A DNA stretch of 61,668 bases, counting the filler, from Dimargaris cristalligena (Eukaryota): assembly GCA_003614675.1 (NCBI GenBank). It is 4 parts of 4 records of this genome, joined end to end, with 100 filler letters (N's around TTAATTAATTAA, not from the genome) between each part and the next. Parts side by side here need not be neighbours in the genome. Positions count along the whole stretch, not along the records: positions 15,484 to 30,852 come from ML002894.1; 3 more parts are not named here. One strand, given 5' to 3'. The translations under genes and the position numbers were made by a program. The notes under the pieces were generated by a model. It saw nothing but the letters and a program-made list of their open reading frames with translations. It did not search any database and was not told where the DNA came from. Below are positions 8,052-51,494 of the stretch, piece by piece (the first letter of the stretch is position 1; every line of letters begins with the position of its first letter).

Positions 8052-11000
8052 ATGGAGGACTCCCAGCAGCAAGCCGCTAACAAATCAATATTTACTGTCT
8101 TGACTTTTCTAGGCAAGGCTCGTCGACGGGAGCGACTCCGCAGGGAGAATAGTTTCCCCAAGGCCCCCAAGTTTGATATTTTTGCCCCATTACCCCCCGA
8201 AGCCTACCGTCCTCCGCCCACACAGCCGCTGACCCCGACGGTCACGGTAACACCGGCGCAAGCGCCGACACCAACTGCTAGCCCAGATCGGTATCTGGGC
8301 CGCGCCACCTCCGAAGCTGGCCCGTCCTCCCAACCCGCGCGTCCCTCTTTCGCCACCCGCCGGACTCTGCAGCCGTCGGCCAGCGCCCGGTCCCATGTGC
8401 CTAACCCCGTCGACACCCGCTACATACCGCGTCCCCAATCGACTATCACTGCTGAATATGTCGGCCCTTTCCATCCAGCAGCCCCCCGCCCCCCACCGGC
8501 GGCGGTGGCTGCCTCCTCCATGGAACCCGATCGGCGGTCCGTGTCGTCGGCGTCCACCTGGGATTCCCAAACCAGTGCGGTAAGCCACTTCGGGTCCCGG
8601 CGGCCGCGGTTGTTCGGCAAGCCCCTCTTCCCCATGCTGCGGAAACGATCCAAGCACTGGCGACCCACCCGGACCACCGCCATCCAGACCCACTCCCGGT
8701 CCACCCTATTCTCCCAGCCCCACAATTCCAGTCGGTCCCGCGTCCCGCGAACCCCGCGGAACGGGTCGCGAACCCAGTTTTCCCCCCGGACTTCCCGGAA
8801 AAAGCGGCACGGTGGGGGGGTCACTTCAACGGGAGTGGGAACCACCACCGAGATGGGTACGGATCCATTAGACGTCGATGACCACCCCGTGCCCCCCTAT
8901 CATCCCCAGTCTACACCCGGTCCTTCGGCTCCGGCCCGACGAATCACCGTCGCCGAGGGCGTGAATCAGCGGGGTTCGGGAAAAGAAGCAGCGGAACGGC
9001 TGCGCGCTGCTTTGCGACCCTCCCATACCGTGCCCCAGCATAATCCCCAAATGTACCCCCATCCACCGGGCTATGATGTCCCCGGTGAACCCACTCAGCA
9101 CGACGAATGGGTGGATACGGGTCCCTCGCACGATCCCGCGACGGCTTGGCGTATGCGACGCCGTAAAAAGGAGCGTGCGCGGCTCAATGTGAAAACCTCT
9201 CCGCGGGCCCGCTCTCCCTTGGCCGAGCAACTGGGGCCATCCGAACTCGAGCCGGTGCCGGAACTCGAACCTGACCCCGAGCTCGAACCAGAGATGGAGG
9301 TGGACCCGTCATCGGTCAACCCCAAAGACTTACCGCGACGCACTTCATCCATGGCTCTGCATGCCCAGTTCCAGGAAAAACCCCATACAGTGGTTCGGAC
9401 GGTTAAACGTACCCAGACCCGAACCTCTATTCGGCCTCAGCCCTCCCACCACTCGGGGGTCTCCTCCGCCCACCCCCATAGCGGCGGTCCACTCTCCGAG
9501 GAAACGGATTACGGTAAACCCATTCGGTCAACCACCATCACCCGAACTACCGCCCGGCTATCTCCCCCTGGTCGCGCCCAAACCATGTATGTCCCAGCCG
9601 GCCAGCCCCACCCCAATATTGACGAGGATCCCGAACCGATGAGCTACCCCGCCGGTAGTCTAGGCCGCAAGTCGTCCCTACAGGAACGGACTCGGGGTCG
9701 GGATAGTGCCTATGGCGACCTAACAACCGCCACCCACGTTATGAAAGCCTACCAGCCCTCTTCGGCCTTTACCCCCTACCATTCGCAAGTCCCCACGCGG
9801 CCGGCCCCGTCCCAGGCCTCCGCCTCCCAATCGGCCAATATCTATGCCCCTGTCTTGACGTCCCGCCCCCAGGAGTGGTTCCCAATGAGCAGTGCTGGCG
9901 CCCCGCAATACCCCACGACTATCATGATGCCTCCCTTGGCCAACCTGGTCCTGCCGGCCCCGATTTCCCTCTCCTCTCCCCCCGAGCGGGAGGCACCGTT
10001 ACACCACAAAGGTAGCGATAACTCGCCTCGGGTCCGGAGCGGCAAACCCCCTCCCCCATCAGCTGGGGGCCATTCGAGCGACTCGGAACATTCTCCCTCG
10101 TCCGAGCGGACAGTTGAGGCTATTCATCGCCAAACCTCCCGCCTCCAAGTGATTGGTGGCGGCCCCTTTTCCGCCCTGCCACCTCTGGGCACCTTGCCCT
10201 CTCTACCCTCCACCGTTCATTTGCAGCAGGCCCTAAACCTTGAGCCATTAACTTTGGATGTGAATCCGTCAACCACCCAAGTTATACCCAGTGCAGCGAC
10301 AGTAGCCGTGGGCCGAGCTCCCGAGCCCGAGTCTAAACTTGAACCGATGGCTGATTCCGATCGCGAGTCCCCCAAAGTATCGGACGATCCCCCGTATCTT
10401 TCCCTGCGATTCCTGAAAAGTAATACCCCCGAGGCCTATCGACTGGCGCCTTCCCTGTTCGACCAGCCCTTTGAAGAGTTCCTGACGAAGCAGGAGCGTA
10501 AACTCAATCGGCAGGTGTCCACCGCTTCGTATCACGCGGCCCAGGGTCCCATCACCACGACTATAAAACCCCAATTTGCCGCCACTTCGCCCCGGGGCCG
10601 GCCCCCGAGTTACACCCCACGGGCGACTACTGCCGCTATTTTACCGGACTTGAACATGTTTTCCCGGGCCGAAATCAACCAGGCTAGCGACGGCGAGACC
10701 AATTTAGTGCAATTGGCCGAAGATTGTATGACCGGGCCGGAACTAACCGAAGAACAGCAGGCTTTAGCTAATGCCCCAATCCCTGACGTCATTCCCGACG
10801 GCTGTATCCGGGACCTCCTGGACATGCCGGACTCGACGGGCCTGGCATCACCCTTTGAAATCGCCGCGGACCTGGATTCTGCCTTCGAAGACCACGACTA
10901 CCACCAAGATCAAGATCAAGCCCACGGCCATGATCGAGACCCCCGCTCGTATCGCACTCACGAGCATGATCGTAATTATGCGACTGAGGAATTACAGTAC

Positions 11001-14000
11001 CGCCAGGCCCAAACCCAGGCCTGGGCCAATTCCATCCCTTCCACCAGCCCGCATATCGACCCCTTATCCGAAGACCAAAGCGACCTGTCGCAACTCTTAC
11101 GGCGGGCGGCCCCCGAGTTTCCATCCCCGCGCTCTTACCACCCGGCCTACCCCGAATCCTCCATGGAAGCCGCGGTCGATGACGAAGTCATGTCCATGCC
11201 CGACGAAGGGAACGAATTTAATACCGACAGTCTGGTCGAATCGCGGCCGACCGCCTTGTTTCTCCAATCCACCGGGCCATTATTGGGGGGCGGCGCCGGT
11301 GGTGGTGGTGATCATACCTCCACGTCGACGACGTCCTTCCCCCCGCGGCAGCAGCCCACTTCGACGACATACCCCACGGAAACGAGCCCACCCGACCGAA
11401 GAAAAGCACGGGCCGCCGCACGGATGTCGGTTACGCAGTCCCCACCAACTCGTTCTACGGGTTCAGGAGAGGCCCGTTCACTGGCTCTTAGTTTGTCCCC
11501 TCGCACCCTACCCACCACCGGACCATCCGATAAGCTTCGCCACCGCGGGTCAATTTTCGACGGGGTGGCGGACCGACCCGGTACCGAACGTACCATTAGT
11601 CGGAAAGTTTATCACGATGGGCCGTACCAAGTTGTGGAGGAAATCGAGGAAGTCGTGGAGATTGTCACGGACACGGAGGAGGCGCGGGATAAGCACCCCG
11701 CATTAGACACTGCCGAGGGGAGGGACCAATACACCCAGCCCTATGAATCTGAAACCGGCGCGGTTCCATCGGAATCAGAGCTAGAGTCGGAGCCAGCCAC
11801 GGAATCCCACCGTGCCATGAAATCCCATCATTCGGATCCTCTAACCCCGTCCGCGTTTCACGATCTATCTCTGGCCACGGACGAGAGTTTGCCACCGTTG
11901 ACCTCGGAATTACCCTCTCTACCGTCTTCCTTTGACAATGCCTTGGGTGGTGGGTCCGGTAGTACGGGGTTACCATCCGACCAGGCTTTCCCTACCGCTC
12001 GTGGAGGAGCCCCGTATTCCCAACCCGAGCCTCGCCTCCTGTCACCGCCGCTTGCACCCCGGTCCGAAAAAGCCCGGGGTAAACAACCGGCGGCTGGTAG
12101 TCAAAGTGGCTCCTATCATCTGCCGCTCTCTTTCACGCCTCCGTCATCGTCCTTACCGTTACCCGCTCCACCGGTTGCCCGACCGCAGTCTCCGCCCCGC
12201 CCTAAATTGTGGGAACAATACGCCCGGACTATTCATGGCGGAGGTCACACCCCGAGATCTGTCTCGGACGTCTCCGATCCTCTAACCCATCCTGGTGCCG
12301 GTGCCGGTCCTGGATACCCCCAGACCTACTCCCCCCCGCAACTCCATCAGCGAACGGCCCTACCAGACTTCACCCCCGCCACTGACGCTGCCACCAATTC
12401 GTCCACCGAATACAATATCGCCACCCCCATCCGAGTACCCTACCTCGACGGACAATCCGTGTCCCTAAGCGCCGAATTCAAACGCGGTCTCCTCCAGGAT
12501 TTATCGGGTACCCAGCCGAATGTTCCAACCCGGTACTATCGCTATGATCCCTCGGCCAATACTAAAGTTGAACCGTCCCCCCCGGCGGTCCCGGCCACGG
12601 ATATGGCTACAACGGCCCCGGAATCTGATTCGTCCCATTTGGTGTCGACTATGGACCATGTCAAGTTCAGGTTGTCCATGTTGGAAAATCAGCTACAGGG
12701 TAAACAATCCATGAAAAGTTTCTATGAAGCTCGGCCTCCTACCGGACCGCAGCCCGCTGTTCCAACGACCGGGTATACCCGCTCTGCTGCTCCGAAGTCT
12801 GATGGACGTAACCTTGGATCCAAGTCTACTACTAAGATGGTTAATCAGGGAAGTCGACCGAAATCAGTGGGTGCTTCTGCAGGCGGAGGAGGAGGAGGTG
12901 GTGGACCAGGTGTTACTTGGAACCCTACCAATAATCTCAGTCCTCCTCAACCAGGTCTTTTGAAGCCATCCGTATCTACTTTGGAAGGGGACCAAGAGGA
13001 ACTATATAGTCGCCGGGAATTCGATCCTTCTTCGGTTGGCGCCGATGGTCACTCAACGTCGTTGCCGCCCTTATCCGAATATCCACCCCCACCCCTACTT
13101 CCACTCCCGCCCCCACCCGTTAAGCAGCCGCAAGCCACCGGCCCTTCGCCGAAAATTGCCCTACCACCACGGAGGAGACCATCCCAGTCTACGGCAGCGA
13201 ACCATGCTAATCCTATTGCTGCTAAATACCAGTCGCCCATTCATTTGCCCGTGCCACAAATTGATACTACGGCTCCCACTCCCCCCGAAAGTCAAAAAGA
13301 GTTGGCGGCCGTCTCGGTGCATGTCTATTCACGCCCACCATCCCATCCGGTCAACAGAGCAATCGCCAGTAGCCCACGTACCTCGGAAGATTGGGGTAGT
13401 CCGGGTCGTTCGAACACCACCACCACCAATAGTACCCTATCTACCGGCAATGCCACAGCCGGGTCGGCGGGGGTGGCCGTTCAGCGCCGGGTCAGCTGGC
13501 TCCCGAGCCACCGGCCCACATCACCCATTCCCGTGTCGGAACACTTGCCCCGTACCCCTGTATCACCGACCCGTCCGAACGCCATGTTCCTAGACTCCCC
13601 TCCCTCGGCGAGCGTGCGCACCAAGAGTCCCCTTAATGTGAAGTTCTGGTATCATTTGGACGATCCCGGTCATCCGCTGAGTACGGATGCACGTCGGGAG
13701 GCCCGGCGACTCAGTCAGGGATTGGGGGTCAATGTAGACCTCCAGAACGACCCGACAGCGGCGGCGGATACCCAGGCGGGAATGCAACGGCGGCGGAGTT
13801 CACAGTCGGCTCGATTTAAGCCCCCACCCTCGCCCTCTCCACCACCGGCGGGGGAGGATGTCTCCGAAGAACTGTCCGCCCGTAGCTCCTCATCTCTGCA
13901 AAATGAATCTGGGGTACTATACCCCCACCCCAAGTCCCCCCGTCCCCACCTCCCCCCCTTCGACTAAACCGCGTTCCGCGGATGACGAGGGCCAACTGAC

Positions 14001-15383: not shown

Positions 15384-15483
15384 NNNNNNNNNNNNNNNNN
15401 NNNNNNNNNNNNNNNNNNNNNNNNNNNTTAATTAATTAANNNNNNNNNNNNNNNNNNNNNNNNNNNNNNNNNNNNNNNNNNNN
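15384..15483. other. Artificial contig spacer (N44-TTAATTAATTAA-N44)
   Basis: 100-nt linker with stops in all six frames, repeated three times in the window. Confidence 0.97.
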
Positions 15484-20440: not shown

Positions 20441-23400
20441 TCAAGCATCACGGTTGGCCTGTTCCCGGGCCCGGCGGATCAAGGGAGCCAAGCTCCGAAG
20501 AGGCTCGGCCTTTTGAATGAACTGATGGGTGAGCAGCTGAGTGGCATTCGGGCGACGGTCGGGGGATACTTCCAGGGCCTTCTCCAAGAAATCCCGGAAC
20601 ACTAATGACAAACTCTCGGGATTCTGGAGCGTGGGCGTGCCATTGGTAGCAATGAGGTACAGGGCTCGTAGCGGGTTTTCATTAAGATATGGCGGCTCAC
20701 CTTCCACCATTTCAATGGCCATGATACCAAGTGACCAAATGTCAACCTTGGGACCGTATTCCTTTCGCTTGACCACTTCAGGGGACATCCAGTAAGGGGT
20801 GCCCACCATCGTAGTGCGTTTGGAGTTGGAGTCGTTCAATTGAGCGCAGAAACCGAAATCAGTGAGTTTGATCTCCCCCGTCAGTGAGAGAAGCACATTG
20901 TCACTCTTGATATCACGATGGATGACCCCCTTGGAGTGAAGGTGCTTAAGACCTTCCAGGGTTTCGCGGCATACGGCGGCGATTTGCCCCTCTGTCATGA
21001 GGTTGTTGGTCACCACTTCAGTCAAGCTACCACCTTCCATATACTCCATAACGACCCACAGGTCGCCCCGGTACAGGAAACTATCAATATAATTTACAAT
21101 ATTGGGGTGGACGCTCTCCCGCATAACCAGAATCTCGTTGATAATCAGGTCCTTCTTGGGCTGTTTCTCCAGGTTCATTTGCTTGATGGCGACGCAGTGA
21201 TTCGAGGTGGTCTGGGTAGCCGTATATACACCACCAGAGGCACCCTGCCCAATCTTCACACGGTTGGTGTAAAGCTGGGTGGGGTCGGCTGGGTTACAAA
21301 TGGCGCGCAGGCGCTCCACCACATCCTCATTATCCTGACGGTTGGGAGGACGAGTCCGCGGGATCGGGCCAGTGCCGGGGGTGGTGCGAGGGGGAGCGGC
21401 CAGACTACTGGGCTGTGATGGGGTACCGGACGATGGGGCAGGAGGGTGCTCGCGGCGTGGGGTGGAGCTTCCTTGGGCGTGATGGTGATTGGCGGATGGG
21501 GCCGACTTTTGTGGGTAGTGGTTACTGACCCCGGACGCAGCAGCCGCGGCCATAACCGCATTGGTGTGGACAATTGGGGGCATTGGCGGACCGGTACTCC
21601 GGCCGGAATCGTTGTCCCGGCGATGTGACTGGGACTTGGAATAGTGCAGGGCGTGTTGGCTGTGATGACCCTGGCCAGGATTGGTGTCTGAATATCGATG
21701 GATGAAATGGGGAACGGGATATAGGGAAATATTGGCGGGAAAATAGTGACGGAAATGGTTAGACTTGGAAGTAACCAAGGTGATATGGGGATGGAAAGCA
21801 GACAACATCCCTTAACTAACAATAATAATAGCATAAGTTTAGAGTGGGGCACTTACGTGAGCGGGTCAGCGCTGGCGTGTGCTGTTGAGCCTTTGGAAGT
21901 AAACGGGGCAGTAGGACAAGCCAAAGATGAGGCATAGTGTAAGAGATATTGAAAATAAAAATGAAAAATATGAGATGACTGGTGTTCAATTGACTAACCG
22001 CGAATGGTTTAAAACATTCCAGTAACAATCAAGGAACCCAGGCGAGTAGTAGTGTAGGGTTATGTAACTTACCACATCGTCAGCACTTTGGGCCTTGGCT
22101 GGGACGTTGTGGGGGGCGGGCTGTTTTATACGGGGCTTTTCTGAAGCTGGTGGAGGAGGAGGAGCACGCTATATCACATGGACCAAAAGGCCGGGGAGGT
22201 GCCAATAATGCAAGTAGGGGATATCCAAAGTATACATGTAATAATAATTGTACAATGTCGAGTGAGCAAAGGGGTCTAAAATTGAATTGGGCAATAAATA
22301 ATACTCGTTATATTATTGGTATAAAGCACAACGATGGATCTGTATATCCTTAGGTGACCTGGGTGGAAAGGACTGTGAGATCAGGCAAATTAATGACCAC
22401 AGCGACACCGATACCGGCAATGCAGGGAGGCTTTTATACTAGACTGGCCGGGTAAGAATGGCTTCATAGGAGCAGCCAGACAATCTGCATCATTATTCAT
22501 AACGATGCAAAAATATTTGCGGACACTGCCTCAATCGACGGGTTATAACTAAACACACGCCTATGTTTTTATATAAACTTACCGGGTTCTCGAACGCGCC
22601 ACCCATATTGGGATGGGGTGGACCCCGATTGGAGGGCGGAGGGGGCGGGGGTCGATTTGGCACTCGATTAGTGCCCGTACCAGGCATAGCCATCTTGGCC
22701 CAAACCGCGTCACCCTTGGCGTGTGTGCTCTCTTGGTAAAAATTGACGACATCGATGACAGCCTAGTAGTAGATGTTGGTGAGGAATCGAGGCGATTGGG
22801 AGAGAACAGGATAGATGCAAAACAAAACAAAAAGAGGGGGAGAGAAGGAACAAGGTCGATAAGTATGATCAAAAGCGCTGCGCAGGACTCGACAGGCATA
22901 GTGCAAAAGGGGGGTTTGGGGGAGCAAATATAGAACCGGCCCTTAACAAGAAAGAGGGGAACGGAAGAGTAGGGGCCGGGGTAGGACATCAACTGATGCG
23001 GTAGTACAGCAGGGGCGCGCTGCTGGTGACTAAGGTGGATACCAGGCCCCTTGATGCGGGGTAGAGGGTATACATGTAGGCACACGGAAGCACTAGGAGT
23101 AGCGGTGACGGATGACTTACTTGAGGGTTGGCCTGCTGCTCTTGCTTTGATATACCGGCCTCTCGAAGCATGACCGACCATTCGCGGGGAAGGCCCTGGA
23201 AGAAGTATTAACGGAGACAAGTGGGGTGCGGGTCAAGGACACCGGAATTAGTAAGATGGTCATAATATTATTTTTGAACCGATACGTAGTTTTGGCGTTA
23301 AAAGGGACATATATGCTAGTTCCCGGTGTGTATAAGCAGAAACTAGATTTGGGCCTAATCGCTGCTGCAATTTACTAGTAAAGGAACTGTCCGGGTCCAC

Positions 23401-24230
23401 TGCAATTCACGCTTAAATGAAGCCTGATCCGGGTGAGTGGCCCGCGTGGAAATAAACCCAGAAAGGCAAATTAGACCATGGAAAAATTATAGTATACTTA
23501 CGGTAAATTCGCCGGTCTCGGAATTGAAACCCACGTGTGTAATGTGAATAGGGTTATAAGGCGAGCTGATTTCGGCCTTCTTTTCCCCGGATAGCAGTTC
23601 TGAGAAGGAACTCATCAAATTGCCAAAAACGCCCTTGACGCCCTTGCCGTTGGGACTATCCACGGGGGTAATAGGTTCGAGGGTACCGTGGTAGGCCTCA
23701 CTGAGAGGTTTGGCAGACGGGTCGCCGTTATTGGCGTAGCGCTGGGCATTCAGATCCTCAGGGGAGGTAACAGACCGGTGCAGTGGGGGGCCGGCGGGTA
23801 AACGGGGATTGGGATTGGGTTCGCCCTGGCGCTGGGCACTTTTACGGGGGGGCGGTGGGGGCGTACGATGCGGGGTTAGACTAGGGGTTGAACCGCCGCT
23901 AGAAGAAGGGGGGTAGTAACCCGAGCTGGAGGCACTGACGGCAGCAGGGGGTATCGCAGAGTAGTGGATCTGAGGGTTGCTGGGCTGATGATGAAGGGAC
24001 ATGTTGGGGTGGGTACCCGGGGGTATTTGGGTGCGCATATTGGTCATGGAGAGGGATTTAGAGACGGATGAGGCACCCGGTGGGGGTGGGGGACTCCGGT
24101 GGGGCATGAAGGAATCGGGATCGGCCAGAAGATGATGGCTGGGAGTGCTACTGTGGTCCGGTTCGGGGGGGCGGTACGAAGACTGCGAAGCCGACGGCTT
24201 GCGGTGGAGATTGGGGCCCGGAGCGGCCAT
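20441..24230 (-). CDS. STE20: Ste20/PAK kinase, 6 exons: complement(join(20441..21687,21857..21890,22073..22168,22583..22762,23121..23195,23502..24230)), ~786 aa
   Basis: CRIB motif [16 protein letters not shown]; spliced GEFT/GLPREW and [12 protein letters not shown]; kinase motifs [17 protein letters not shown] and [12 protein letters not shown]-terminal G-beta-binding-like motif [10 protein letters not shown]; no PH domain, unlike Cla4. All donors are GTAAGT and the phases are consistent. The exon 5 acceptor is slightly uncertain. Confidence 0.92.
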
Positions 24231-26477
24231 CCTACAGGGGGCAGAGCGGAGCGAAGGAGGCTAAAGGAGAGGGGCCAGAAAGCTGGGTCGGATAGATGGC
24301 GACGGGTGGGGACCAAGGACTAGCTAGAGAAAGGATAGCAAGCCGATAATAATAACAATAATAGGAATAGTGAGAGTAGGAATAATGATAATATAAAAGG
24401 GGAGCTAATAGCACCTAGGTACAGCGGTTACAAGGATATAAACTAAGTAACCGACAATAAGCATCCAGAGAAAGCAAACTGAGGCAGTAGATGAAGAAGG
24501 AAGGAGATTGAAGAGGAGTATAAGCTGGGCCAAAAGACCAGGTGTAAACAGAACACATGCGCATATAGCATACAGAGGGATCCAACAACACAGCGTCTTG
24601 GTAACCTTCGCCAGGGGAGAAGGGCTGCTCTGGCTGTTAATAACCACTACTACTACTTATGTTATACTATTATATTACCACGCGTGCCTGAAGGGGGGGA
24701 AGGGGAGAGGAGAGAAGAGAAGAGAAGGGAGGAGAGAAGAGGAGAGGAGAGGGAGCTGCTGTCTCTCGGGTGGAATTTCCTCCCCTACCCAAGTAAAGTA
24801 GACCTTCCGGTATGCCCAACTCCACTAACTACCTACCTAGTCGTACATGGCTCTAACAAACGGCGATAATCACCCAGCGAAATTCAGTGATTCTATCTTC
24901 CACGTCCCCCAAACATAGTGCCTACTTGCCCCATAGGTTTAGCACTACCGCTCTTGACCATTTTACTGTAAATGGCGCGCTTGGCAAGACCATGTTTTTC
25001 TGGAACTATACATTCAAGAAGCCCATAATAAACATGATGTAGTCCATGTTAATTCGGCTGCTTAACCAGAGCCTTGGGAGTGCATTTGGCGGTCGCACGG
25101 CCATTACACTTCCCGCTGGGCCACTGATACCCAAGATCACATGACTGTACCCCTTTCTCCTATCCTCCCTTAGTCTCGCTCGAGTTAGCCTAGGCCGATG
25201 CCGTCTCTCTGCACTCCCCCCACGGGACAAATCAGTCCGTTGTCGAAGGTATGCCAGGGGAGATCAGTAGTGCCACGCCATACATCGACCACCGCATATC
25301 CGCTCGATGGCTGGGAGGGGGGGAAGGTGGCATAAGAGACCGCGGCTGACCCACACCCCTGGGGCTGTACTTCAAGCGACGACCGGTTAGGGTTAGTTAG
25401 TAAGACAGGTAGGTAGGTGTAGGAAGAAGGGGTGGTAGAGGAAACATTGAAAAGTGATTTATTCGACTGGACAGGACAGGATCCAAGGGGCTTGGGCTCA
25501 ATATTGGCCGCGCCTATAATGCGGAATGAGATTGACCGGTGTTTCTCCTCAACAACGGCTGGGGGTGGCACATAGCTGCCATTCCCATCTTAATGAAAAA
25601 ATATATATATCCAAATCAACACCTTAACAGTGAACCCCAAGCCATAATTGTCATGATTGCCGCTTGGTTTATGAATTTCATGAGTGTGTCAACTCAGGGA
25701 TGAAACCCCCATTTTTGCCTACCAGATCCTATTTTATATACGGATTTTGTGATTATATGTCTATCCGATTGCCCTGGAGGGCTATATTTAACTTCGATCC
25801 TTTAGGGATATTCCTATGCCCAAAAAGAATAAGACGGTCTATTATATATACGCGAGGTGCAATCACGCCCCTAGTGTCAACAAGGGATTATCTACTTTTA
25901 CCTACCTCTGCGTACGTCAAATATGATATGCACATATTTAGGGACTACTCCCAAGTGCAGCTGATTAAATTTGACGTATGTGAGAGGCCCTCTCCTCCTC
26001 CCTCGCTTTCCCAGCCTTCCAAAGAGAGATGCAGACACCCCCAATCACCGCCCCCCGCGGTATCATAAGCAATAGGCCTGTCTTGGTGACCAATGACAAC
26101 CAGTTGCCATGGAAGTGCTTTCGTGGTTATATTGGATATTAGTATTACTTAAGTGAGGAGACCAGGCACATGTTGAAGAAGAAGAGAGAAAAAAAGTGCC
26201 ATAATGTGTATATATAAAAAAAAAAAGCCGTCAGAAAAAAATCCACCGGATTCGTGCGCTGTCGCACTTGTTATCGAGTATAGATGGAAAGTACATTGGG
26301 CCACGCCCCAACCGTACATGTTGCCACTGTGAGTCCACCCACCCACTCATTCCCTCACTCGCAGGCCTTTGCAATAGATCGTTTAATAAATAAAAAAGAA
26401 ATCCGATTTTATTCATAGTGCATATGTGTGGATTCATAGCATTTCCACCGCCATTGGGCGTCTACTCTACGCAGTCG

Positions 26478-27212
26478 TTAATTTCCGGGGGTTTGGTTTC
26501 CCACTAGAGGCATTATGTTGGACGCAGGTCTTGGCATAGAGGGCGCCGCCCCATTCACTTTTCCGGTGCAGCCGTGCTGGTGGGCTGTTTGTTCGCATTT
26601 CTTAGAAAATGCTGCGGGACACCGCCGGCAACGGTAGGGCGGCGTCGTTTTAGCTGGCTGCCAATGCGCTGTCAACCGGCACTTGTGTTTATAGCTTTTG
26701 GTACATACATCACAGCGAAACTGGTAATGGGTACAGTCCAATTGCAAATGCTGGTCATATCGCTTCCGGCTAGCGAATATTTGCCGGCAAGTGGCACATT
26801 TAAGGAGCTGCGCGCACTCACCCGACTCCCGGTGACCCGCCAGACTATGGCCGTTACCAAATACTTTTTGGCAGTCGGGGCAGGGTTCCGAAACATGTTG
26901 CCAATAGAGGTGGCCCTGTAACAACTCGGCATGGGTGAAAAGGGCCCCACAATCCGGGCATGGTAAGTCGGCCTCGCCAGGCATGCTGGAGCTTTCCCTA
27001 GACAGCTTGGTCGTTACACTGCAATCTTCAGTGGGTGCGTTCACTGGGCCTCGAGTTTCGCCCAGAGCATGGCTAATAGAGGGCGGCGATAGAGAACTGA
27101 GCTCCTGATCGGCCACCAGATTTGGCAATGTCGGTTGGGCATGAGCATTGTGATAATTGGTTACTAATGATATAATAAAAAGAGATGCGAGTCTAAAGGG
27201 TCGATTCATCAT
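26478..27212 (-). CDS. Signal-peptide protein with five tandem C2H2/C2HC-type zinc fingers (244 aa)
   Basis: N-terminus MMNRPFR-LASLFIISLV-TNYHNAHA/QPT. Five CX2CX12H units (CPDC, CPDC, CATC, CDVC, CRRC), each with F/Y at the canonical position. Confidence 0.85.
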   Translation of the reverse strand: MMNRPFRLASLFIISLVTNYHNAHAQPTLPNLVADQELSSLSPPSISHALGETRGPVNAPTEDCSVTTKLSRESSSMPGEADLPCPDCGALFTHAELLQGHLYWQHVSEPCPDCQKVFGNGHSLAGHRESGECAQLLKCATCRQIFASRKRYDQHLQLDCTHYQFRCDVCTKSYKHKCRLTAHWQPAKTTPPYRCRRCPAAFSKKCEQTAHQHGCTGKVNGAAPSMPRPASNIMPLVGNQTPGN

Positions 27213-28524
27213 GATTATGGTGACCTATTTCCGTAGTCTGTACAATCTAGAAGCAGTTGGATGGAAAACGATAGTAGAAAAAAAATAAATGAAGTGCCTA
27301 CAGGCGGTATATGAGGGTATGCTTAGGACTGGTATTATTGGTATGGTGCCTAAGCGGGTAGAGGCTGTGTGGTCTTCGAGAGGATAACTAGATACGGTTC
27401 CTCAAGGCGGGGAGTAGCAATGTTTAAATACAAAATGAAGATGCTGCCCTGGGCTAATGCCTCACTTGTAATTTATTGATTTATGGTGGGGAGGCAGGTC
27501 CACATCTCTTTTTAAAACACCATTAAGCCCTATTCGATGCAAAGGGATGGTGTCGCCTCTGGTTTACCTCCAGTGCTACGTTAAATAATGACCATGGACT
27601 GAGAGGGCGGAATCTGCCGTAGGACACGGGCTGAGCGTGTAACGCCCTAACGTACGAGGCAGAGCAAATGGTTTTTGGCGGCGGGCCCAGTCAGTATAAG
27701 TAGCGAGTATTAAGGCCAGGCTGCTTTTAGGCGTGTTGGGCTAAATGGACTTATGGCGCAAATCGCGGAATATCCACTATGCCTCCTTGCCCGAGTACCA
27801 TTTATTCAGAGATCTTGAGCAAGGAGTGTTGAAACAAAACGAGTGGTGGTCTATAATAGAAAAATATCAGATACCCACTGTGGATTGCCTCATATAATTA
27901 TAAGGACATGCCTGTCATACTATATATGGCTTATCCAAGAAGGCTGGCAGTTCCCAATACATTAACTAAAAGGCTATGTCCAATTTTCCCCCATTGGGTA
28001 AATTAGCCAAATATCTTAAAGCTGGTGGCGCCCCCCCCCCTCGCTAATAGCCAATGCCCACCACCAGTGTGGGGGGTATTTCGTATACTTCGGCTAGCCC
28101 ATTATTGCACCCAAGTGGGCTGCCTGGTTCTTGTCATACCCCTGTTTCCCCTTATACACTCCTACCGGCTTGGTTTATAGTCCATGCTAAGCCAGTTGTG
28201 GACCGATGCCACCCGCTCACTCTTTCGGAGCCCCCGATTTGGTAGCTCAGTGGGGAGTTGCTGAAGGGTCATTTTGCATTGAGTAGAGGAATATTCTCCG
28301 AATACAAACCCCGCCTATTCATAGATAGTTTCTTACCATAGATTGGTTGTACTCGATTTATCTGATTCTATGGTGCCTCCTATTATAGAAGCACCCGGCA
28401 TATTTTTACATCATCCGCTTTTCGCTGCAACGGGGGCCAGGAGGTGCTAAGTAACTGGGAAATTTCAAGGGGGTGGGATTTCAGGCTCAATGGTGGTTAG
28501 CAGCTGGGAAACGATATTAGTTAC

Positions 28525-28670
28525 ATATGGGAGAAATTCATTCAGGCTGTATAATGAAGAATCCATTGGATGAGGCCAATATTATTGGTTAAAAGGTATT
28601 CTCACATATATATTCACCCATACATGTATTATGTAAAACCTTATACAGCTAGTTTGAATTTCACCCATAT
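28525..28670 (-). mobile_element. MITE copy 3 (inverted), ATAT at both ends
   Basis: atatgggagaaattca...tgaatttcacccatat, the reverse-complement homolog of 4628-4771. Confidence 0.8.
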
Positions 28671-29046
28671 CCTTTAGGCAGTCCATCTCCACAGGATACG
28701 AATTGATTTCCACTGCTAAAAGAGTAAATTTATTGACAACCCGTAAAGAAATATAAAATTAGACAGTATACTGAATCAAAGAGTAAAAGGCGATATCCTA
28801 TATCGGTTTAGAACAAATCAGCTAAAAGACCAGGGGATCCCTGTCTGAGTGACTGTGTCTCCGGGATACGAATGGGTGACCAGGGGGAAGCAGTCAAGTG
28901 GCTTAACAAGTCGGTTGAGCCGAACAAACCCATATTTCAGTAGCGGACGGTGTGACCAATGTCATTGTAAAAAGCTGCTAACCGATGCTGCCAACTTGGG
29001 ACATACAGGGGGTTGAGAGGGTTCGAAGTGCAGGAATCCATTAAAA

Positions 29047-30852
29047 CTAATTGGCCATAGCCCGGAGCGTAGTGTTCGTGATAGGCGATTGAAGGATACT
29101 TGAGTGATAATGCGCGGCCATAAGCCACTGGTCCATTAGCTCGTTGCTTAAACCTTGATCTAAGAAAGCCGAGTCGGGAAGAGGGGGATTTTGGGGCAGG
29201 ATGGAACGGAGGGTGAGAAAGGAAACGGATGTTTTCAATTGACCATCTTCGCCCACGGTTCTATTAATAAATAATTGAGGGTTCAAACTCCATTTATCAT
29301 CGCAGACATCTTCTTTGCAAAATATCATGGTAGTTTCACTCTGGCACTCTCTCTCTAAAGTTTCGACAGCCTTTTTGAAGCCCAGAGCTCGGGCACAGTT
29401 GTATAACTTCTTTTTATCCCCGGAGGTATAAAGGTATTCAGGTAAGATTCGCTCTTTGCTTTTGGCCCAGGGTGATTCTAAATATCCCAACTCCATGGCC
29501 ACTAAATCAAGGAACGTACACATATAACTACTAAATCTCCATTTAACATTGAGTTCGGCGATATAGTCTTGTAGTAAATGGCTTCCTTGTTGGACCAATG
29601 CTCCGATGATTAGAGAAATTGAGTATATAGTGGTCATTTGACGCATAGCATACTGTTCCATTTCACGCCCGTCTCCGGGGGCCAGTCAGGATTGAAGATA
29701 AGCTGCCAAATGGAACCATGGTCGAGAGATTGTCCGTTAGTGATGTAATTTCCATAATCATGTCATTAAGATTTCGGAGTTGTTTAGCATCACTGTGGAG
29801 GGCTATCTTGACTAATGGGAACAAATCCATCAGTTGCGCCGAGTTCAACTCGTCGAGGCGCACGTAGCACCATTCGGAATAAACCCGTTCCAATTCGGTC
29901 TTGAACTCTGGATTACTCAAAAGTCCTATTTCGGGAGCCAGATCATTGTCCCAGCGTACTTCGAGTTCCTGTTCATCGTCCCAGTGTAGGTCGTTAGTAT
30001 AATGTGCCGCCTCAACTTCCGTAAATTGGGTACTATTGACGACAATATATCTTTCCAAATCGTTATCAAAAGCGTATTTTTCTCCTGTTGGTGAGATACT
30101 GATTTCATGGAGGTAGCCATACGCCAAATAGAATAAGGCAGAGGTCAGTTCGACCCTTAGAAGCTTCTTTATATGATCGGCACTCCATTCTAACTTGGAG
30201 TATGGCTGAAATTTGTCTAGTTGATCCATAATCTCTTTGTATTTCTAGGTAGGCGAGACAGGCGTTGGGGAAAAAATATAACTAAGTTAGAGATAATCTG
30301 TATTGTCGATATGTGAAGGTCATATGATTGGCCTAATGTAATGAACACGATATGGCAATATGCCGAGAAGTGTTGCTCTTAGTGTTGTCGAAGGAGCCTA
30401 GGGAGCGTATTCCTGAAAACTTTCGGCCCAATTAAGATTAGATTGGCTAGGTCACTTACATTGGCTAGTCTTCTATATTCTGGTTTGGAGTTGACCAGTG
30501 CCTGATTATATTTAGATGTTTGGGCTAATTGACCCAAGCCACGCGCAGGTAGGTAGTTGGTTACAATCCCAAGAATTTCCGGGGGGAAATCTATAGTCTT
30601 CCTCCCTGTTCTTTCCTTAGGTTGGGTATGGTCGTCAGTGGTGGTTTCCTGTTCACCGAACGCTGTATTTTGCTGAAACCGGGTGTTGTCGCCCATTAAG
30701 ACCGCATCCATCATCTCGTCGGGCTGGGACGGAGACATCGATGACCACTCGTTCGAGGCTTGCGAAGCATAATTGGCATGGCCAGGGGCGCTAGGGTGAC
30801 CGGAAACCATGGCACAGTGGGCCAAAAGCATACCCACCAAGGTAACGGAGTA
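29047..30852 (-). CDS. Signal-peptide + F-box-like protein; 5' end cut by the contig edge; intron 30245..30459; frame break near 29677-29681 (possible pseudogene)
   Basis: Partial signal peptide ...YSVTLVGMLLAHCAMVSG/HP and F-box-like IDFPPEILGIVTNYLPARGLGQLAQTSKYNQALV. A GTAAGT..CTAG intron joins RRLAN to KYKEIMDQ in frame. The downstream ORF 29047-29661 starts immediately after the TGA in a shifted frame. Confidence 0.7.
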
Positions 30853-30952
30853 NNNNNNNNNNNNNNNNNNNNNNNNNNNNNNNNNNNNNNNNNNNNTTAA
30901 TTAATTAANNNNNNNNNNNNNNNNNNNNNNNNNNNNNNNNNNNNNNNNNNNN
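30853..30952. other. Artificial contig spacer
   Basis: N44-TTAATTAATTAA-N44. Confidence 0.97.
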
Positions 30953-36190: not shown

Positions 36191-37545
36191 TCACATCATT
36201 GAACAGTTATCCATACCCGGTAACTTGGGCATACCGTCGCTGCCCGTATCCATATCGGGGGCGATATCCTTGAGTATTTCCTTGGGGGGTTGGCCGCAGT
36301 CCTGCATATCTTTCATAAGGGCAACGATGCGACCTTGGCCCGCCTCGGACTGGGACTGGGCCTCGTAATCCGGGGCATTGTAAAAGGCCACGATTTCTTT
36401 GACGTAGGCGTATTGCTTGGCATATTGCTCGTACTCGGCGGCCGGTAGCGTCTCGCGGTGGGACTCCAGCCAGGCGGGATACCGTTCGGCGAGCTCCTTC
36501 ATGGGCTCGAAGAGGACGTCTTTGGTCATGATTTGTTCGAGAATTCCCTCCATCATCTTCTCGAAATCATCGCCGTCAACGAGGCCCTCCATCTGCTGCA
36601 TCATTTCGCTGATTAGGGAGTCGGGATTCTGGTCATCGGACATATCGGTCTAATAGTGGGTAGAATGGGTAATGTGTATAGTCAAGGTGGTGAGTAATAG
36701 CGACCGGTTTGAAGGACCCAATTCCGAAATAGGGTGGATTTTGAGGAGGGCTACCCCAGCTTGGTTATGCACAATGGTTCCACAGACAGAAAGGAGGGCA
36801 CTATCACTTCTCAATAGAGGACGTGGGAACATTCCCGTAGCTGCAGACCACAATTTTTTAAATAATCAGGGGCGCAGTGCAAGAGGTAGCAGAAGACCCA
36901 GGGCCAGGCGTAACGCAGCCAGGGATGACCCAGGTGACTGCAGAAGTGGTGTATTGTATCGATAGCGAGCCTTACCTGGGCTTGTTCGGAACTGGTGTCC
37001 AATTTATTGAGGGTCTGTACGATGCGCTCTTGGAAGGTCTGGGATTTCGACGCAGAAGCGGGTCCCTTCGTAGTGGAAGTGGAGGTGGCAGGGTTCGCAA
37101 TAGAAGCAGCAGCAGTAGGGGTGGAGTCCGTTGGGACCGACCGATCCGAGGCACTTTGACTGGCAACTGGCGAAGCCATGAGGTCATTGAGGTCGGCACC
37201 CTGTAGGGACTGGAGGAGGTTCTCCATGGTTGATTTCAAGGCAGGGGCTTCGTCAACCTGGCCCATCATTTGGCTCATTTCTTCCATCAGTTGGCGGGCG
37301 AATTCGTCCTCAAAGTCCTGACTGAAGTGGCCCACCGACTTCGACTCGGGTGGGGGCATGCGCTTGGTTGACGCCGTCGTTGCCGTTGTCGTTACCGAGG
37401 GAGGGCCGGCTGAACTCGTAGGCGGAGCGGGGGGCTGGGTCTGGGGTGGGTTGAAGTCGTCTAGAATGTCATCGAGGAACTCGTCCAGGTCGTCGTCAGC
37501 GACGGCTGCCTCGGCGGACACTTTCGGGGGTGGGGGACCGGACAT
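36191..37545 (-). CDS. PEX19: Peroxisomal membrane protein import receptor Pex19, 2 exons: complement(join(36191..36649,36976..37545))
   Basis: N-terminal DDDLDEFLDDILDDF; FQERIVQTLNKL; MTKDVLFEPMKELAERYPAWL; MQDCGQPPKEI; CaaX box CSMM; in-frame GTAAGG..TTAG intron. Confidence 0.93.
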
Positions 37546-39265
37546 GGTGTGGGTAAATTAACAGAGTGGGGGGAATAATAGAGTTCGGAATGCGGAGAAT
37601 AATGAGCACAGAAGAGAGGAGCGTGAAGTCACAAGAGTAGAGCCCACCTCCACGTTAGATACTGGGAAGAAGGGGGCAAGAGCGTGTGTAGTAGGGAAAA
37701 AATGTACAGTGGATAATGGACGCTGAAGCTCGAGAGAATAAGAATAACCAAGGGTATGGGGAAGATGGTGATGCTGGGGAGAGCAGAGTGTACAACAATA
37801 CAACCTGAATTTCAGTATGGGGAGGAGTCACACTGCCCGTCTCAGTCATACTACTTACTCCTCCATGGTAAAATGCGCACTTCTCCATATTCCTTTATTG
37901 CCAACTGGCCGATATAGTAAAATAATGGCGGGCTCACCAGACAAATTAATAAATCCAAAAAAAAGGGTGCGGCCCTTCCTTGGCTTTGCCATGTGAAAAG
38001 AAGTAGTTCCCCAGCTCTCTTGCGCAAGGATATTAAATCCCTTTCCTTTATTATACACACCCTGATTATTCTTATAAGATTCCAGCATGGTATAGCATTG
38101 GCTGAGTGAAATAAGCACGTGACTTCCCTACCCCCCCCTCCATTCCTGTTGGTTCACGACGGCCGATTGACTACTATCTACTACCAAAACCCTTGATTTT
38201 AACATAGGAGAGATAATATAATTACTGGACTATATTATCCGGAGGCCAGTTCGTTTATCAAAAAATATTATCCCGAAAATCATGGAACAATCCGTCTTTT
38301 ATTACCACCATGTTGAGTTTGGGAGTGCCCACAACTTACGAGTCACCGAAGTATGTCAATCATTTATATATCCATAACCCACACTTTCAAACACACAGTC
38401 TGCGAACGATGGGCACCAAAATACCCTTCGGATAGCAGTTAGTGGGAACCTAGTATGGTACACCATCATAATTGTCTTACCTCTCTCTCTCAGTAGCTGC
38501 GCGGCTATATCTAGCCCAGATTCTCCGAATCGTCGTGACACTATACGCCCAGGTTCCATACATCAATTGGCCTGGACCTACCCAAAGGTGATGTGATTCG
38601 GCCAGTTCCCATCTACTCGAAAACTTTCTCGTCTACTGGCTCGCGATCTAAATTCGCACACCGAAGCAACTTCGCCTGTTAGTCACATCGATAAACACCG
38701 CCGATACTGCTAGCGAGAATTCCGCGCCAACGACGGACCCACAATCGTAATGCTAAAGCACCGCTTCATTCGCGAACGAGCCGGTAATAACGTACATGAC
38801 CGCTGATTTCATTGTAATGCCCGGCTTTATCTGATATTGAAAACTGGAAGAGGGGGCTGTAAAACGACGCTAGACGGACAAAGAAAGGAAGTCACACATG
38901 CAAGTTTCCGCGTAGTACGTTGTATGCGCTACAATATACCTTTTGCCGACGCCAAAAAGAGACCCTAACGACCCCTCCCGTGAAAAACCCTCGAAATTGC
39001 CGACGCGTTAAACAAACTTAACAAATAACGGGCTAACTTCCGTCGCATTAGGAACCTAGCGGAGGTGCGCTAATAAGCGTCTATTTAATCGAACCCTGAA
39101 CAAATAGGCGCATCGAAAAACATAACAACAATCCGGGCATTGGGCTAAGTGGCCATATCAATAAGACCGTAAAACAAAAACTCATAAATTTACTAATATA
39201 CGAGACTGGACGAAAGCAGGGGGAGGGGATATCAACGAGGGATATCCCGGTTTCCGCACCTCCGG

Positions 39266-46261: not shown

Positions 46262-46361
46262 NNNNNNNNNNNNNNNNNNNNNNNNNNNNNNNNNNNNNNN
46301 NNNNNTTAATTAATTAANNNNNNNNNNNNNNNNNNNNNNNNNNNNNNNNNNNNNNNNNNNN
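46262..46361. other. Artificial contig spacer
   Basis: N44-TTAATTAATTAA-N44. Confidence 0.97.
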
Positions 46362-47915: not shown

Positions 47916-50900
47916 ATGGAGTACCAGAACAATGCCCAGTTCAAAGACTTCTCGTACTGCTTAACCCGGGAAGTGGACCAGTTTGTGGCCGTCAAACTGT
48001 AAGTTAAACTGAATGGCTAAAGCGCCCCAACACAACTACCAAGAGCGCTCATTGGCCTCCGGTTGACCCGAATTGCAACATCGCTAAGCGATGTCAACCG
48101 TATTCCTAACGGCCCAAGTTATGAAGTGCCGGTTTCTAACTCCAGTTAGAATATATTTATTGGTGTATGTTATTGCGGCGCATTGTCGTTACAGGGTATC
48201 ACTAGAGGGAAATTTGAAGCGGTTTCCCGATGCTGTATCACGGGAGATTAACGAAACGATTGAAAGACTGGGACTTGGCGATGTCCCTTCTAACGTAGAG
48301 TAGGTTGACGTAATATCTATATAGATGGCATTATATAGGGATACTGGTTGAATAGCTGCGCGAGTGACTATAGAAAGGCATGGCCACCAAACCCATGCCT
48401 AATATTCCTAGATATTATTGTTTAAATGCCTACACTCCCATACAGTCCCGCCAACTCCATATTCGCCACCGTCGAGATATACGCCGACGGGTATCCATTA
48501 GGGATTCCCTACCGAACCTCATACCGCCCTACCAAGCACAACATGTAAGTTTTTATGGTAGACACATATGTCGCTCACTTCAATACGTGGTGTTTCATTA
48601 CCATGGTGCCGGACTATTTCAATAACCATTTGCATCCTATACACTCAAATTATGACTTATCAAATTACACCTATCAATTATCGTTTGGTTATTTAGTTGG
48701 AACGAATGGATCACCCTACCAGTCAAATACTGCGACATTCCTCTGACTGCTCAACTTCTGTTCAATTTCTGGTGCCTGGAAGCCCCCCGGGAAATTCAAA
48801 TTGTCGGGGGTTGTACACTATCCCTTTTTACCTGTAACCAGTAAGTGCACTATTCCATACTTCTCCGAAATATTCCCTATACCCCCCCCCAGTAAGCACT
48901 GCTATTTAACCCGGCGTCCTCGCGCCTAAACTGGTAAATTAGGCACCCAGTCAACTAATCATCATAATGCCCTGTCCTGCCATTTGTTAAATATTATTCA
49001 ATTTAGTAAACTACGCCAAGGGCGCCAGAAACTGACCCTGTGGGATGGCCAATTAGCCGACCCCCTGAGTCCCACCCAAACCCCGGGAAAAACGGGCACT
49101 AAAACCGAAATGGATCGCCTGGAAAAACTAATAAAGAAGCACGAAAACGGCGACCTGGCGCGCCTGGACTGGCTGGATAAACTGGCCTTCCGGGAGATTG
49201 AAAAAATCCACCAAATAGAAGCCCGGCGTACCGTTGCCACGTTTTTGTACATTGAATTGCCCAAATTCGATTTCCCCCTCATTTACAGCGAAACCGAAAG
49301 CGCCGATCCCTATTTAGTCACCCCTTTATTCCCCCGCATTGCATTCGTCCACGACCCCGAATTGCACCGGGAGAATCTGGCCGAAGCCAAACACCGGCGC
49401 CTGCTCCGGAGCCAACGCCACGGCCCCCTGGACCGGGAACTCAAACCCAACGCCAAACTGCGGGACGAATTAAACACTATTCTCCAGTACCCCCCCACAA
49501 AGGAACTCAATACCGAAGAAAAGGACCTGCTGTGGAAATTTCGCTTCTACCTGGCGCGCGACCGCAAGGCCCTGACGAAATTCCTGCGCTGCGTGGCTTG
49601 GTCGGATCCGGTGGAGAGTCACCAGGCCGTTGATCTACTGACCCAGTGGGCCGATATTGATGTGGACGATGCCTTAGAATTACTCGGACCGGCCTTTACG
49701 AACCAACAGGTGCGGGCCTATGCGGTGGTGCGACTGCAGCGTGCCGACGATGACGAGCTGCGCTTGTATTTGCTGCAGTTGGTACAGGCCCTACGGTTTG
49801 AAGCCATGGGCCAGCGGCTGAGCCATCCGATGGCCGGTGATGCCATTGTGATGCCGACGGCGACTTCAGGGGTGCCCACCGTAACGGCTACCACCACCAC
49901 TACGACGACAACGAATAATGTGCATCTGGCGAACTCTACACACGCCCATTTTGGGTCACCTGCACCACCGGCAAAGTCGTTGACCGGGTTGGCATCATCT
50001 GTACCTGGTCCATCGACCTCTGAATCGGGCTTACTGACGACTGCTGATCCCGCCCTCTCCCACGCCTCAGCCAACGAAGGTGCCACCTCCGCCGCCGCCG
50101 CCACCACCAGTACGAGTACCAGCACCACCTCCACATCCAACTTGGCAGAATTCTTAATCACCCGGGCGGTACAAAGTCCCATCTTGGGCAATTACTTCTT
50201 TTGGTACCTGCGGGTCGAATGCGAGGACAAGGTTGTAGGGCCCATGTACACCCAGATAGCCCTACAATACGAACAGACCATGGGCCGGTTACCCGGCGGA
50301 GCGGAACGACTTGATATTTTGGCCCGCCAAACCGCCCTCATGACCAAACTCTCACGTCTATCCCTCCACCTACGGCAAATGAAAGAGGCCCGCCCCCAAA
50401 AGATTGCCTACCTCCAAAACTACTTGGCCAACCCCAAGAACCAACTGCAACGCTTCCCAGCACCTCTGCCCCTCCCTCTTGACCCCACGGTGGAGGTGGT
50501 GGGTATCATACCCGAAAAATCGACGGTATTCAAGAGTAGTATGCTGCCGCTGTCGTTGACTTTTGCCCGACGGAGACCCCCGAGCCGACGTAGACCACGC
50601 GACGGCCAGATGGCCGGAAGTGGGGCTGGGGGTGGGGAGAGCGACGAAGATGATGGAGTTGGGTATTCGGACGAAGAAGAGGAAGAGGTAGGGAAAGAGA
50701 GTGAAGCGGAATACCGACTCATGTTCAAGACGGGCGACGACCTGCGCCAGGACCAGCTGGTGATCCAGATTTTTACACTCATGGACCGTCTACTCCGCCA
50801 GGAGAAATTGGACCTCCGACTCACTCCGTATAAGGTGCTGGCGACGGGGGCTGACCAGGGTCTGATCCAATTTATACCATCCAGCGCCCTGGCGCAGGTG

Positions 50901-51494
50901 CTAACGGAGCACAATGACAGCGTCCTGGCCTACCTGCGCCTGCACAATCCCGACCCGCGCCCGACGGTACCCTACGGCGTGACGGCGGGGGCCATGGACA
51001 CATACATCAAGAGTTGCGCCGGTTACTGTGTCATCACGTACCTTCTAGGGGTCGGCGACCGCCACCTGGACAACCTTCTCATGACCCGCGACGGACGGCT
51101 CTTCCACATTGATTTTGGGTACTTCCTCGGCCGCGACCCTAAACCCTTCCCACCCCCCATGAAACTGTGCAAGGAAATGGTCGAAGGCATGGGGGGCGCC
51201 TTCAGCGTCCAGTACCAACGGTTCCAGGCCTACTGCTTCGTGGCCTTTAGCGTGCTTCGTAAATCAGCCAACCTGATTCTGAATCTTTTGGCGTTGATGG
51301 TGGAAGCGAACATCCCGGATATCGCCATTGAACCCGACCAGGCGGTGGCTAAAGTGCAGGAGAAATTCCGCCTGGATCTGTCAGAAGAGGAGGCGACCCA
51401 GTACTTCCAGTCGCTGATTAATGAGTCGGTGAGTGCGCTGTTCCCCCAGGTGATTGAAACGATTCACCGGTGGGCCATGTACTGGAAACAGTAG
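47916..51494 (+). CDS. VPS34: Class III phosphatidylinositol 3-kinase, 5 exons: join(47916..47998,48195..48299,48446..48544,48697..48840,49007..51494), ~972 aa
   Basis: C2 domain (WNEWITLPVKYCDIP), helical domain (EEKDLLWKFRFYL, LYLLQLVQALRFE), kinase motifs FKTGDDLRQDQL, GVGDRHLDN and HIDFG, and C-terminal IHRWAMYWKQ. All introns are GT-AG with consistent phase. Confidence 0.96.

Follow-up and report, generated by a model that had tools for sequence, protein, structure and literature searches.

A Lineage-Restricted Protein Family of Dimargaris cristalligena with a Signal-Peptide-Like N-terminus, a Divergent F-box and a New C-terminal Domain: Candidate Effectors of a Mycoparasite

Introduction

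Hijacking of the Skp1-cullin-F-box (SCF) ubiquitin ligase by invaders has, to our knowledge, been described for bacteria, viruses and a single insect, and we are aware of almost nothing on how biotrophic mycoparasites manipulate their fungal hosts. Here we describe a gene of Dimargaris cristalligena, located on the minus strand at positions 29047-30852 of a window of 61,668 nucleotides (the whole stretch of DNA that was analyzed, from GenBank assembly GCA_003614675.1), which encodes a signal-peptide-like N-terminal segment, an acidic linker, a divergent F-box and a C-terminal domain without a known relative. An earlier reading of the locus, made from its sequence and hereafter referred to as the original prediction, took the product for a secreted F-box-like effector that recruits host proteins for ubiquitination.

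Judged by architecture, the closest analogue of the Dimargaris family would be the SSGP-71 family of the Hessian fly; Agrobacterium VirF, too, is said to be an F-box effector. Host Skp proteins are described as interaction partners of two F-box effectors, SSGP-71 and RipG7 of Ralstonia (PMC4617103); translocated F-box effectors from these two sources were also among the precedents that the original prediction had invoked. As in the case of the Dimargaris family, the SSGP-71 proteins belong to a eukaryotic parasite, are described as consisting of a classical signal peptide followed by an N-terminal F-box, form a multigene family (PMC4617103, PMC7330099), and end with a C-terminal domain that is presumed to choose the targets. 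The differences lie in the C-terminal domain, which consists of leucine-rich repeats (LRR) in SSGP-71, whereas that of the Dimargaris family is non-LRR and has no relative in Pfam, PDB or the Atlas; in the host, which is a plant in the former case and would be a fungus in the latter; and in the size of the Dimargaris family, which is small (at least six members).

Legionella AnkB and the RipG/GALA proteins of Ralstonia are likewise described as F-box proteins that are delivered into the host cell and use the host Skp1 and SCF. These bacterial effectors depend on type III or type IV secretion and carry ankyrin or LRR target-binding parts, whereas the Dimargaris family appears to rely on a signal peptide of the endoplasmic reticulum (ER) type. 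A literature search for secreted F-box effectors in fungi and mycoparasites found a single candidate, NLS_30765 of the fungus Rhizophagus clarus, which is reported as predicted to be secreted, contains PF12937 and has been proposed as an effector interfering with host signaling (PMC4746824); unlike the Dimargaris proteins, it shows a clear PF12937 match (2.8e-07), and it is itself an effector candidate only. In addition, two orthogroups from the secretomes of Mortierellomycotina, OG0000176 and OG0000338, are listed as predicted to be secreted and as containing PF12937 (PMC9391592, supplement 9). All these proteins come from plant-associated or saprotrophic fungi, and no homology between them and the Dimargaris family turned up in the family searches made. 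Canonical cytosolic F-box proteins of the Cdc4/Fbw7 type share the three-helix F-box fold, with Cdc4-Skp1 (3v7d_D) and Fbw7-Skp1 among the structural matches reported below, but they lack a signal peptide, have substrate domains of the WD40 or LRR type and show wide conservation.

The gene is public as a hypothetical or "F-box domain-containing" protein. No paper naming both "Dimargaris cristalligena" and "F-box" was found in the literature search. The terms effector, secreted, F-box and ubiquitin are absent from the main text of the genome paper of the species (PMC6784888), as are F-box, signal peptide and "secret" from its 11 supplements, and neither F-box nor Dimargaris occurs in the main text of the zygomycete secretome paper.

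Results

Gene Structure

The gene is made up of three stop-to-stop open pieces on the minus strand (30379-30900, 29663-30244 and 29047-29685; the features are collected in Table 1), and all plus-strand frames over it are shorter than 75 codons. The 5' end, which the original prediction had described as missing, is indeed absent, being lost at the contig end rather than in a true gap: the first ~7 codons lie beyond the end of the contig piece (15484-30852, 15369 bases). These seven codons are supplied by P0007 (H4R33_007035, partial), a model of this locus that comes from a second D. cristalligena assembly; it begins with M-A-M-K-S-I-S and continues with the residues encoded in the window. Exon 1 is matched with 100% identity by the other public model of the gene, P0006 (BJ085DRAFT_35254, D. 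cristalligena), and 276 of the 278 residues aligned between P0007 and P0006 are identical. The two residues that differ are adjacent (V-E against F-Y, codons near 30000-30020) and reflect either strain variation or a local error.

Two features of the gene, intron 1 and a frame break in exon 2 (see below), were absent from the original prediction. Intron 1, which is in phase 0 and lies between the N-terminal module and the C-terminal domain, has a GTAAGT donor (30454-30459), a CTAAC sequence (30276-30280) and a TAG acceptor (30245-30247). The exons of P0006 are joined at the same points, and unspliced read-through of the intron leads to a stop at 30379-30381. With the start recovered from P0007, the conceptual precursor comprises ~536 residues (7+131+189+209 codons, counted by hand).

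An alternative model that lacks the F-box, with a GTAACC donor at 30559-30564 as implied by P0007, was judged less likely because the GTAAGT donor is canonical and the skipped segment is open and conserved in six relatives. The segment coding for the F-box is spliced out in both models from the second assembly, P0007 and P0004, and is retained in the models from the first assembly; this is a conflict between annotations or, possibly, a sign of an isoform that lacks the F-box.

A Family with a Shared Architecture

A word-index search with the last exon piece retrieved two proteins among 728 candidates, the paralogs P0004 and P0005 being 45% identical to this piece over 92% of the query (E 1e-30), and the same kind of search with exon 1 retrieved four proteins among 168 candidates. 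The first exon-2 piece gave six hits at E<=0.001 in a phmmer search of 1.84 billion representatives, all of them members of the family, and a four-sequence profile retrieved six proteins among 8000 scored candidates. The family thus delineated includes the window gene (P0006/P0007), a close paralog (P0005/P0004), P0012, P0013, P0009, P0011 and the fragment P0008; P0010 was matched by eye as another model of P0012 (D. cristalligena). D. cristalligena is the organism of every named match, a statement that leaves out P0008, P0009 and P0011, and in the searches made the family appears to be restricted to this species.

The same architecture is found in at least six distinct relatives, and the matches of five relatives to the window in a tblastn search lie solely within 29053-30852 (one copy); the combination of parts therefore seems to be more than chance despite the weak Pfam match of exon 1 (E 0.0032). 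Conservation is uneven along the protein. Pairwise identity within the family is 45-100% in the signal peptide, 11-88% in the linker, 22-80% in the F-box and 18-52% in the C-terminal domain, that is, the signal peptide is the best-conserved part whereas the C-terminal domain varies. Between the window gene and its closest paralog, the respective values are 100, 88, 80 and 38%, and the switch in conservation coincides with the intron, which suggests a conserved N-terminal exon module joined to diverging C-terminal exons. Gene conversion, exon shuffling or unequal selection could each have produced this modular pattern.

The N-terminal Segment and the Linker

The partial signal peptide of the original prediction is present and, with the start taken from P0007, can be described in full. 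By inspection and by the 19-residue Kyte-Doolittle hydropathy, the completed N-terminus consists of a basic n-region with one Lys in the first eight residues and a hydrophobic core of ~14-17 residues, followed by small residues at positions -3 and -1 and then Pro, with ends of the V-S-G, V-S-S or A-x-A type. The best 19-residue mean is 1.60 in the window gene and 1.45-1.81 across six relatives, and all six relatives with complete N-termini show the same signal-peptide-like layout. From these sequence features, the N-terminus is likely to be a canonical signal peptide that would be cleaved and would direct export.

The acidic linker that had been noted previously was recovered (11 D/E vs. 5 K/R by hand count) and is predicted to be disordered; the equivalent residues of the paralog model described below have a pLDDT (predicted local distance difference test) of 24-34. 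Between distant relatives, the linker is the least conserved region of the protein (11-40% identity). About 12 residues before the F-box, at about 30619-30630, there is an x-Q-P-K-like motif with a Gln that is invariant in the otherwise very variable linker; this motif could be involved in processing or uptake.

The F-box Segment

Exon 1 matches PF12937 (F-box-like) with an E-value of 0.0032 and 17.6 bits and PF00646 (F-box) with an E-value of 0.018 and 15.4 bits, in both cases below the Pfam gathering cut-offs, which are 24.3 and 20.5 bits, respectively. The best score in the family, 23.6 bits for P0013, is still under the cut-off of 24.3 bits. Matches to Pfam models of the F-box clan at E<=1 fall at the same aligned position in six of the nine family proteins scanned; the three proteins without such a match are P0011, the fragment P0008, in which the region is absent, and P0004, the model of which splices the segment out. 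When a profile of six family members was compared with the PDB, four of the five sequences found at E<=10 were F-box proteins, all matched at profile positions 84-144: FBXW8 (E 0.088), Legionella AnkB (second best, 0.48), FBXW7 (0.53) and FBXO31 (2). In HMMER, FBXW8, AnkB and FBXW7 align in register with the family, and the sole match other than F-box proteins is a reaction-centre subunit (E 3.2).

The language-model neighbors of residues 72-135 in the Atlas are F-box clusters, with a top score of 0.95, a value that, according to the tool, shuffled proteins reach about once in 100. The ten best Atlas hits that bear a family are all F-box, and nine of the ten structure rows belong to F-box families (template modeling (TM) score by query 0.53-0.62), the remaining row, without a common family, scoring 0.65. 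An AlphaFold model of 67 residues (30460-30660), built with five relatives as the alignment, has a pLDDT of ~82 over helices 27-34, 39-46, 50-57 and 60-66. A Foldseek search of the PDB with this model gave 35 matches at E<=10 and none at E<=0.001. The best match is AnkB in complex with human Skp1 (5k35_A; prob 0.93, root mean square deviation (rmsd) 2.2 Å), a similarity limited to 45 columns at 31% identity and with a non-significant E-value. Among the 32 rows listed, 24 are F-box chains of Skp1 or SCF entries (rmsd 0.9-3.2 Å), of which 23 were assigned by entry title and one as D3; the others are five mouse cytoplasmic-lattice chains of unstated identity, one PRC1.1 entry and two unrelated entries.

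In the alignments of four and six sequences, the Pro, the Glu and the downstream Leu of the L-P-x-E...L core, which we take to be positions of contact with Skp1, are invariant, and the first residue of the motif is F, L or S. We conclude that the segment is predicted to adopt a divergent but genuine F-box fold. What the original prediction called an F-box-like motif holds as far as the motif itself (~30463-30591) and the matches to F-box structures are concerned, whereas the profile scores stay below the Pfam cut-offs. No Skp1 was detected among the 21 long open reading frames (ORFs) scanned in the window.

The C-terminal Domain

The two exon-2 pieces encode a C-terminal domain of ~400 residues, which had been reported as unrecognized sequence and proved to be so in every search: no Pfam family matches either piece at E<=10, the profile comparison with the PDB revealed no relative of the domain, and the Atlas search of the domain gave no usable feature hit and a TM score of at most 0.32. 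The full-length paralog P0005 was modeled with AlphaFold from an 11-row alignment. The mean pLDDT of the model is 56.7, with values of 70-87 in the cores of the C-terminal domain, which is mostly helical, with the conserved stretches C-Y-V-R-L and S-V-S-F-L-T-L-R-S making up a small sheet. A Foldseek search with this model produced no matches at E<=0.001, and the best TM score by query was 0.19. No target-binding domain of the LRR or ankyrin repeat type was found after the F-box by Pfam (E<=10), Foldseek or Atlas searches, and no catalytic motif is evident by eye. The C-terminal part is an alpha/beta domain without a known relative; by analogy with other F-box proteins, it would most simply be the target-binding part.

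The Frame Break in Exon 2

At a run of five C in exon 2, a one-base break separates two reading frames: frame A runs into a TGA at 29663-29665, and frame B is open for 209 more codons up to the TAG. P0007 is in frame across the run and the paralog alignment is colinear across it, so the break is either a homopolymer error of the consensus or assembly, of a kind typical of such runs, or a lesion that is specific to the strain or to an allele. Amplified single or few cells are described as the source of the assembly, and the same paper reports the majority of its fungi to be non-haploid (PMC6784888), so that the break could represent one allele. A short intron at this site (GTTCCA...ACAG, ~64 bases) was ruled out by the colinear paralog alignment and the read-through in P0007.

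Other Features of the Window

The window consists of four pieces of ~15.3-15.4 kb joined by N44-TTAATTAATTAA-N44 linkers at 15384-15483, 30853-30952 and 46262-46361, so that genes located across these points are not genomic neighbors. The contig of the F-box gene also encodes a PAK-type kinase and a C2H2 zinc finger, and Pex19, a PI3-kinase, a prephenate dehydratase and Psf1 were found elsewhere in the window; by their sequences, all these appear to be ordinary fungal housekeeping genes. One ORF contains three repeats of PF05532 (CsbD-like), a family that we take to include mainly bacterial stress proteins. A 2012-codon open frame at 7929-13964 (plus strand) has a GC content of 0.59-0.64, compared to about 0.45-0.5 elsewhere, is rich in Pro, Ser and Thr and of low complexity, matches no Pfam family at E<=0.001, and probably encodes a long disordered protein. 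No tandem repeats were found at 26000-30852 and no tRNAs in the window.

Table 1. Coordinates of the F-box gene and of other features in the window
Feature	Positions	Strand	Remarks
Signal peptide, last 18 codons	30799-30852	-	translation; P0007 begins 7 residues earlier with Met
Acidic low-complexity linker	30592-30798	-	translation; predicted disordered
Divergent F-box	~30463-30591	-	F-P-P-E start, three short helices and a fourth
Exon 1	30460-30852	-	end of signal peptide, linker and F-box
Intron 1	30245-30459	-	215 bases, phase 0
Exon 2, first frame	29682-30244	-	N-terminal half of C-terminal domain; W-C-Y-V-R-L-D motif
Run of five C	29677-29681	-	one-base frame break
Exon 2, second frame	29050-29676	-	C-terminal half of domain; S-V-S-F-L-T-L-R-S and L-P-x-S-A-F motifs
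Stop codon	29047-29049	-	TAG
C2H2 zinc-finger ORF	26481-27224	-	Pfam; same contig
PAK-type kinase gene	PBD 23490-24260, kinase 20444-21811	-	Pfam; same contig
Prephenate dehydratase	3239-4099	-	Pfam
GINS Psf1	5707-6342	+	Pfam
Pex19	36194-37557	-	Pfam; in two ORF pieces
Vps34-type PI3-kinase	48930-51491	+	Pfam
ORF with three CsbD-like repeats (PF05532)	53676-54335	-	E 6e-23

Discussion

The Dimargaritales are described as parasites of other fungi that employ an appressorium and a haustorium, so that the host of D. cristalligena would be a fungus (PMC9866270). By analogy with the systems outlined above, we tentatively read the protein as an effector of this haustorial mycoparasite that hijacks the SCF ubiquitin ligase of the host, a reading that we consider possible rather than probable. 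The protein would enter the secretory pathway, be released at the haustorial interface and then arrive in the cytoplasm of the host fungus, where the F-box would dock on the conserved Skp1 of the host and the variable C-terminal domain would present host proteins to the SCF ligase, which would ubiquitinate them. Fungal Skp1 proteins are highly conserved, and given that both host and parasite would be fungi, docking on Skp1 presumably would need no special adaptation; a parasite F-box protein would need just an export signal to act in a fungal host. We know of no role for an F-box in the secretory lumen or outside cells, and a family that is restricted to one lineage, diversifies at the C-terminus and has a signal peptide conserved in every member would match the expectation for delivered effectors. 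More doubtful is the fuller scenario in which the entire family consists of lineage-specific effectors that combine a conserved signal-peptide/linker/F-box exon with a domain that has a new fold and diversifies rapidly, are delivered via haustoria and reprogram the host SCF.

As for the fungal SCF-hijacking effector of the original prediction, the proposed architecture is supported, whereas the combination of a signal peptide with an F-box is not by itself diagnostic (PMC9391592). Several observations weigh against the effector reading. The hydropathy of the N-terminal segment (1.45-1.81 across the relatives, with the classical transmembrane threshold at ~1.6 for 19 residues) is borderline for a membrane anchor, and the polar residues that are strictly conserved in it might hint at some role other than export. 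The segment would then be an uncleaved anchor or an organelle-targeting helix, and the protein an endogenous, membrane-tethered SCF substrate receptor, with the F-box and the C-terminal domain in the cytosol, that serves the turnover of the fungus's own proteins. This explanation, which we consider rather unlikely, is compatible with the N-terminal segment being the best-conserved one and containing fixed polar residues (Y, S, T, H, C), which a plain export signal would not usually show, and with the general behavior of F-box proteins, which normally act in the cytosol of the cell that produces them. The charge before the hydrophobic core, however, is solely positive (one Lys and the amino terminus), and the stretch of 20 residues that follows the core is neutral or acidic in two of six relatives and balanced in four; by the positive-inside rule, such charges favor the placement of the C-terminal part in the ER lumen rather than in the cytosol. 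Furthermore, the A-x-A or V-S-G ends followed by Pro resemble signal-peptidase sites, and there is no second hydrophobic segment of comparable score ahead of the F-box. A broader concern comes from other fungi. The largely non-parasitic Mortierellomycotina hold in their secretomes two F-box-like indicator orthogroups, which supplement 9 of the respective study lists beside other domains of cytoplasmic type such as RhoGAP, Hsp70 and AAA (PMC9391592); hence a signal peptide with an F-box occurs, or is mispredicted, outside parasitism. Among the predicted secretomes of zygomycetes, cytoplasmic-type domains are reported to be common (PMC9391592), a pattern that suggests misprediction to be frequent and would favor the membrane-tethered receptor.

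Other points concern the F-box itself. In none of the nine family proteins scanned is the curated cut-off of a Pfam F-box model reached; the E-values of the PDB profile matches (0.088-2) and of the Foldseek matches (at least 0.7, because the F-box domain is small) are all non-significant; the pLDDT of the F-box region is just 33-36 in the full-length paralog model; and the F-box-coding segment is omitted from both second-assembly gene models. It is conceivable, if unlikely, that the family is secreted or exposed at the cell surface and that its F-box-like helices have lost the binding of Skp1, persisting as a remnant or serving in other binding, with no link to ubiquitination. Apart from the sub-threshold profile matches and the weak structural and sequence matches to the PDB, this explanation would account for the first motif residue, where three of six relatives have Phe or Ser in place of Leu, and for P0011, in which no Pfam F-box match is found at E<=1. 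Conversely, the invariant Pro, Glu and Leu core and the helix pattern are retained in relatives with a segment identity of 22-46%, which argues for selection on the F-box itself, and nearly all of the closest solved structures are F-box chains complexed with Skp1. Finally, the window copy carries the frame break and could be a pseudogene in the sequenced strain, with a truncated product of ~324 residues or none, in a family that perhaps is functional, an improbable case that stands independently of the effector reading and of the other explanations: one extra base in the C run does lead to the stop at which the public model of this assembly ends (P0006, 317 aa), but the 209 codons of the downstream frame are uninterrupted and match the paralog over their full length with 45% identity, P0007 is in frame across the site, and the break lies in a homopolymer of an assembly described as obtained from amplified single or few cells (PMC6784888).

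Implications

The effector reading, for which the evidence is set out above, would add to the known systems a candidate secreted eukaryotic F-box effector for which both the target-binding domain and the biological setting are new. Should the N-terminus instead prove to be an anchor, the proteins would form an unusual membrane-tethered F-box family. In the fuller scenario, if true, the family would provide the first fungus-to-fungus effector that hijacks a ubiquitin ligase and a novel fold by which F-box proteins recognize substrates. If the effector reading is confirmed, SCF hijacking would extend to the parasitism of fungi on fungi and a new fold would be added to those that bind targets. 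The acquisition of nothing more than an export signal would represent a simple, testable path to effector evolution, and Skp1 binding and the host targets would offer a concrete entry point into the biology of mycoparasites.

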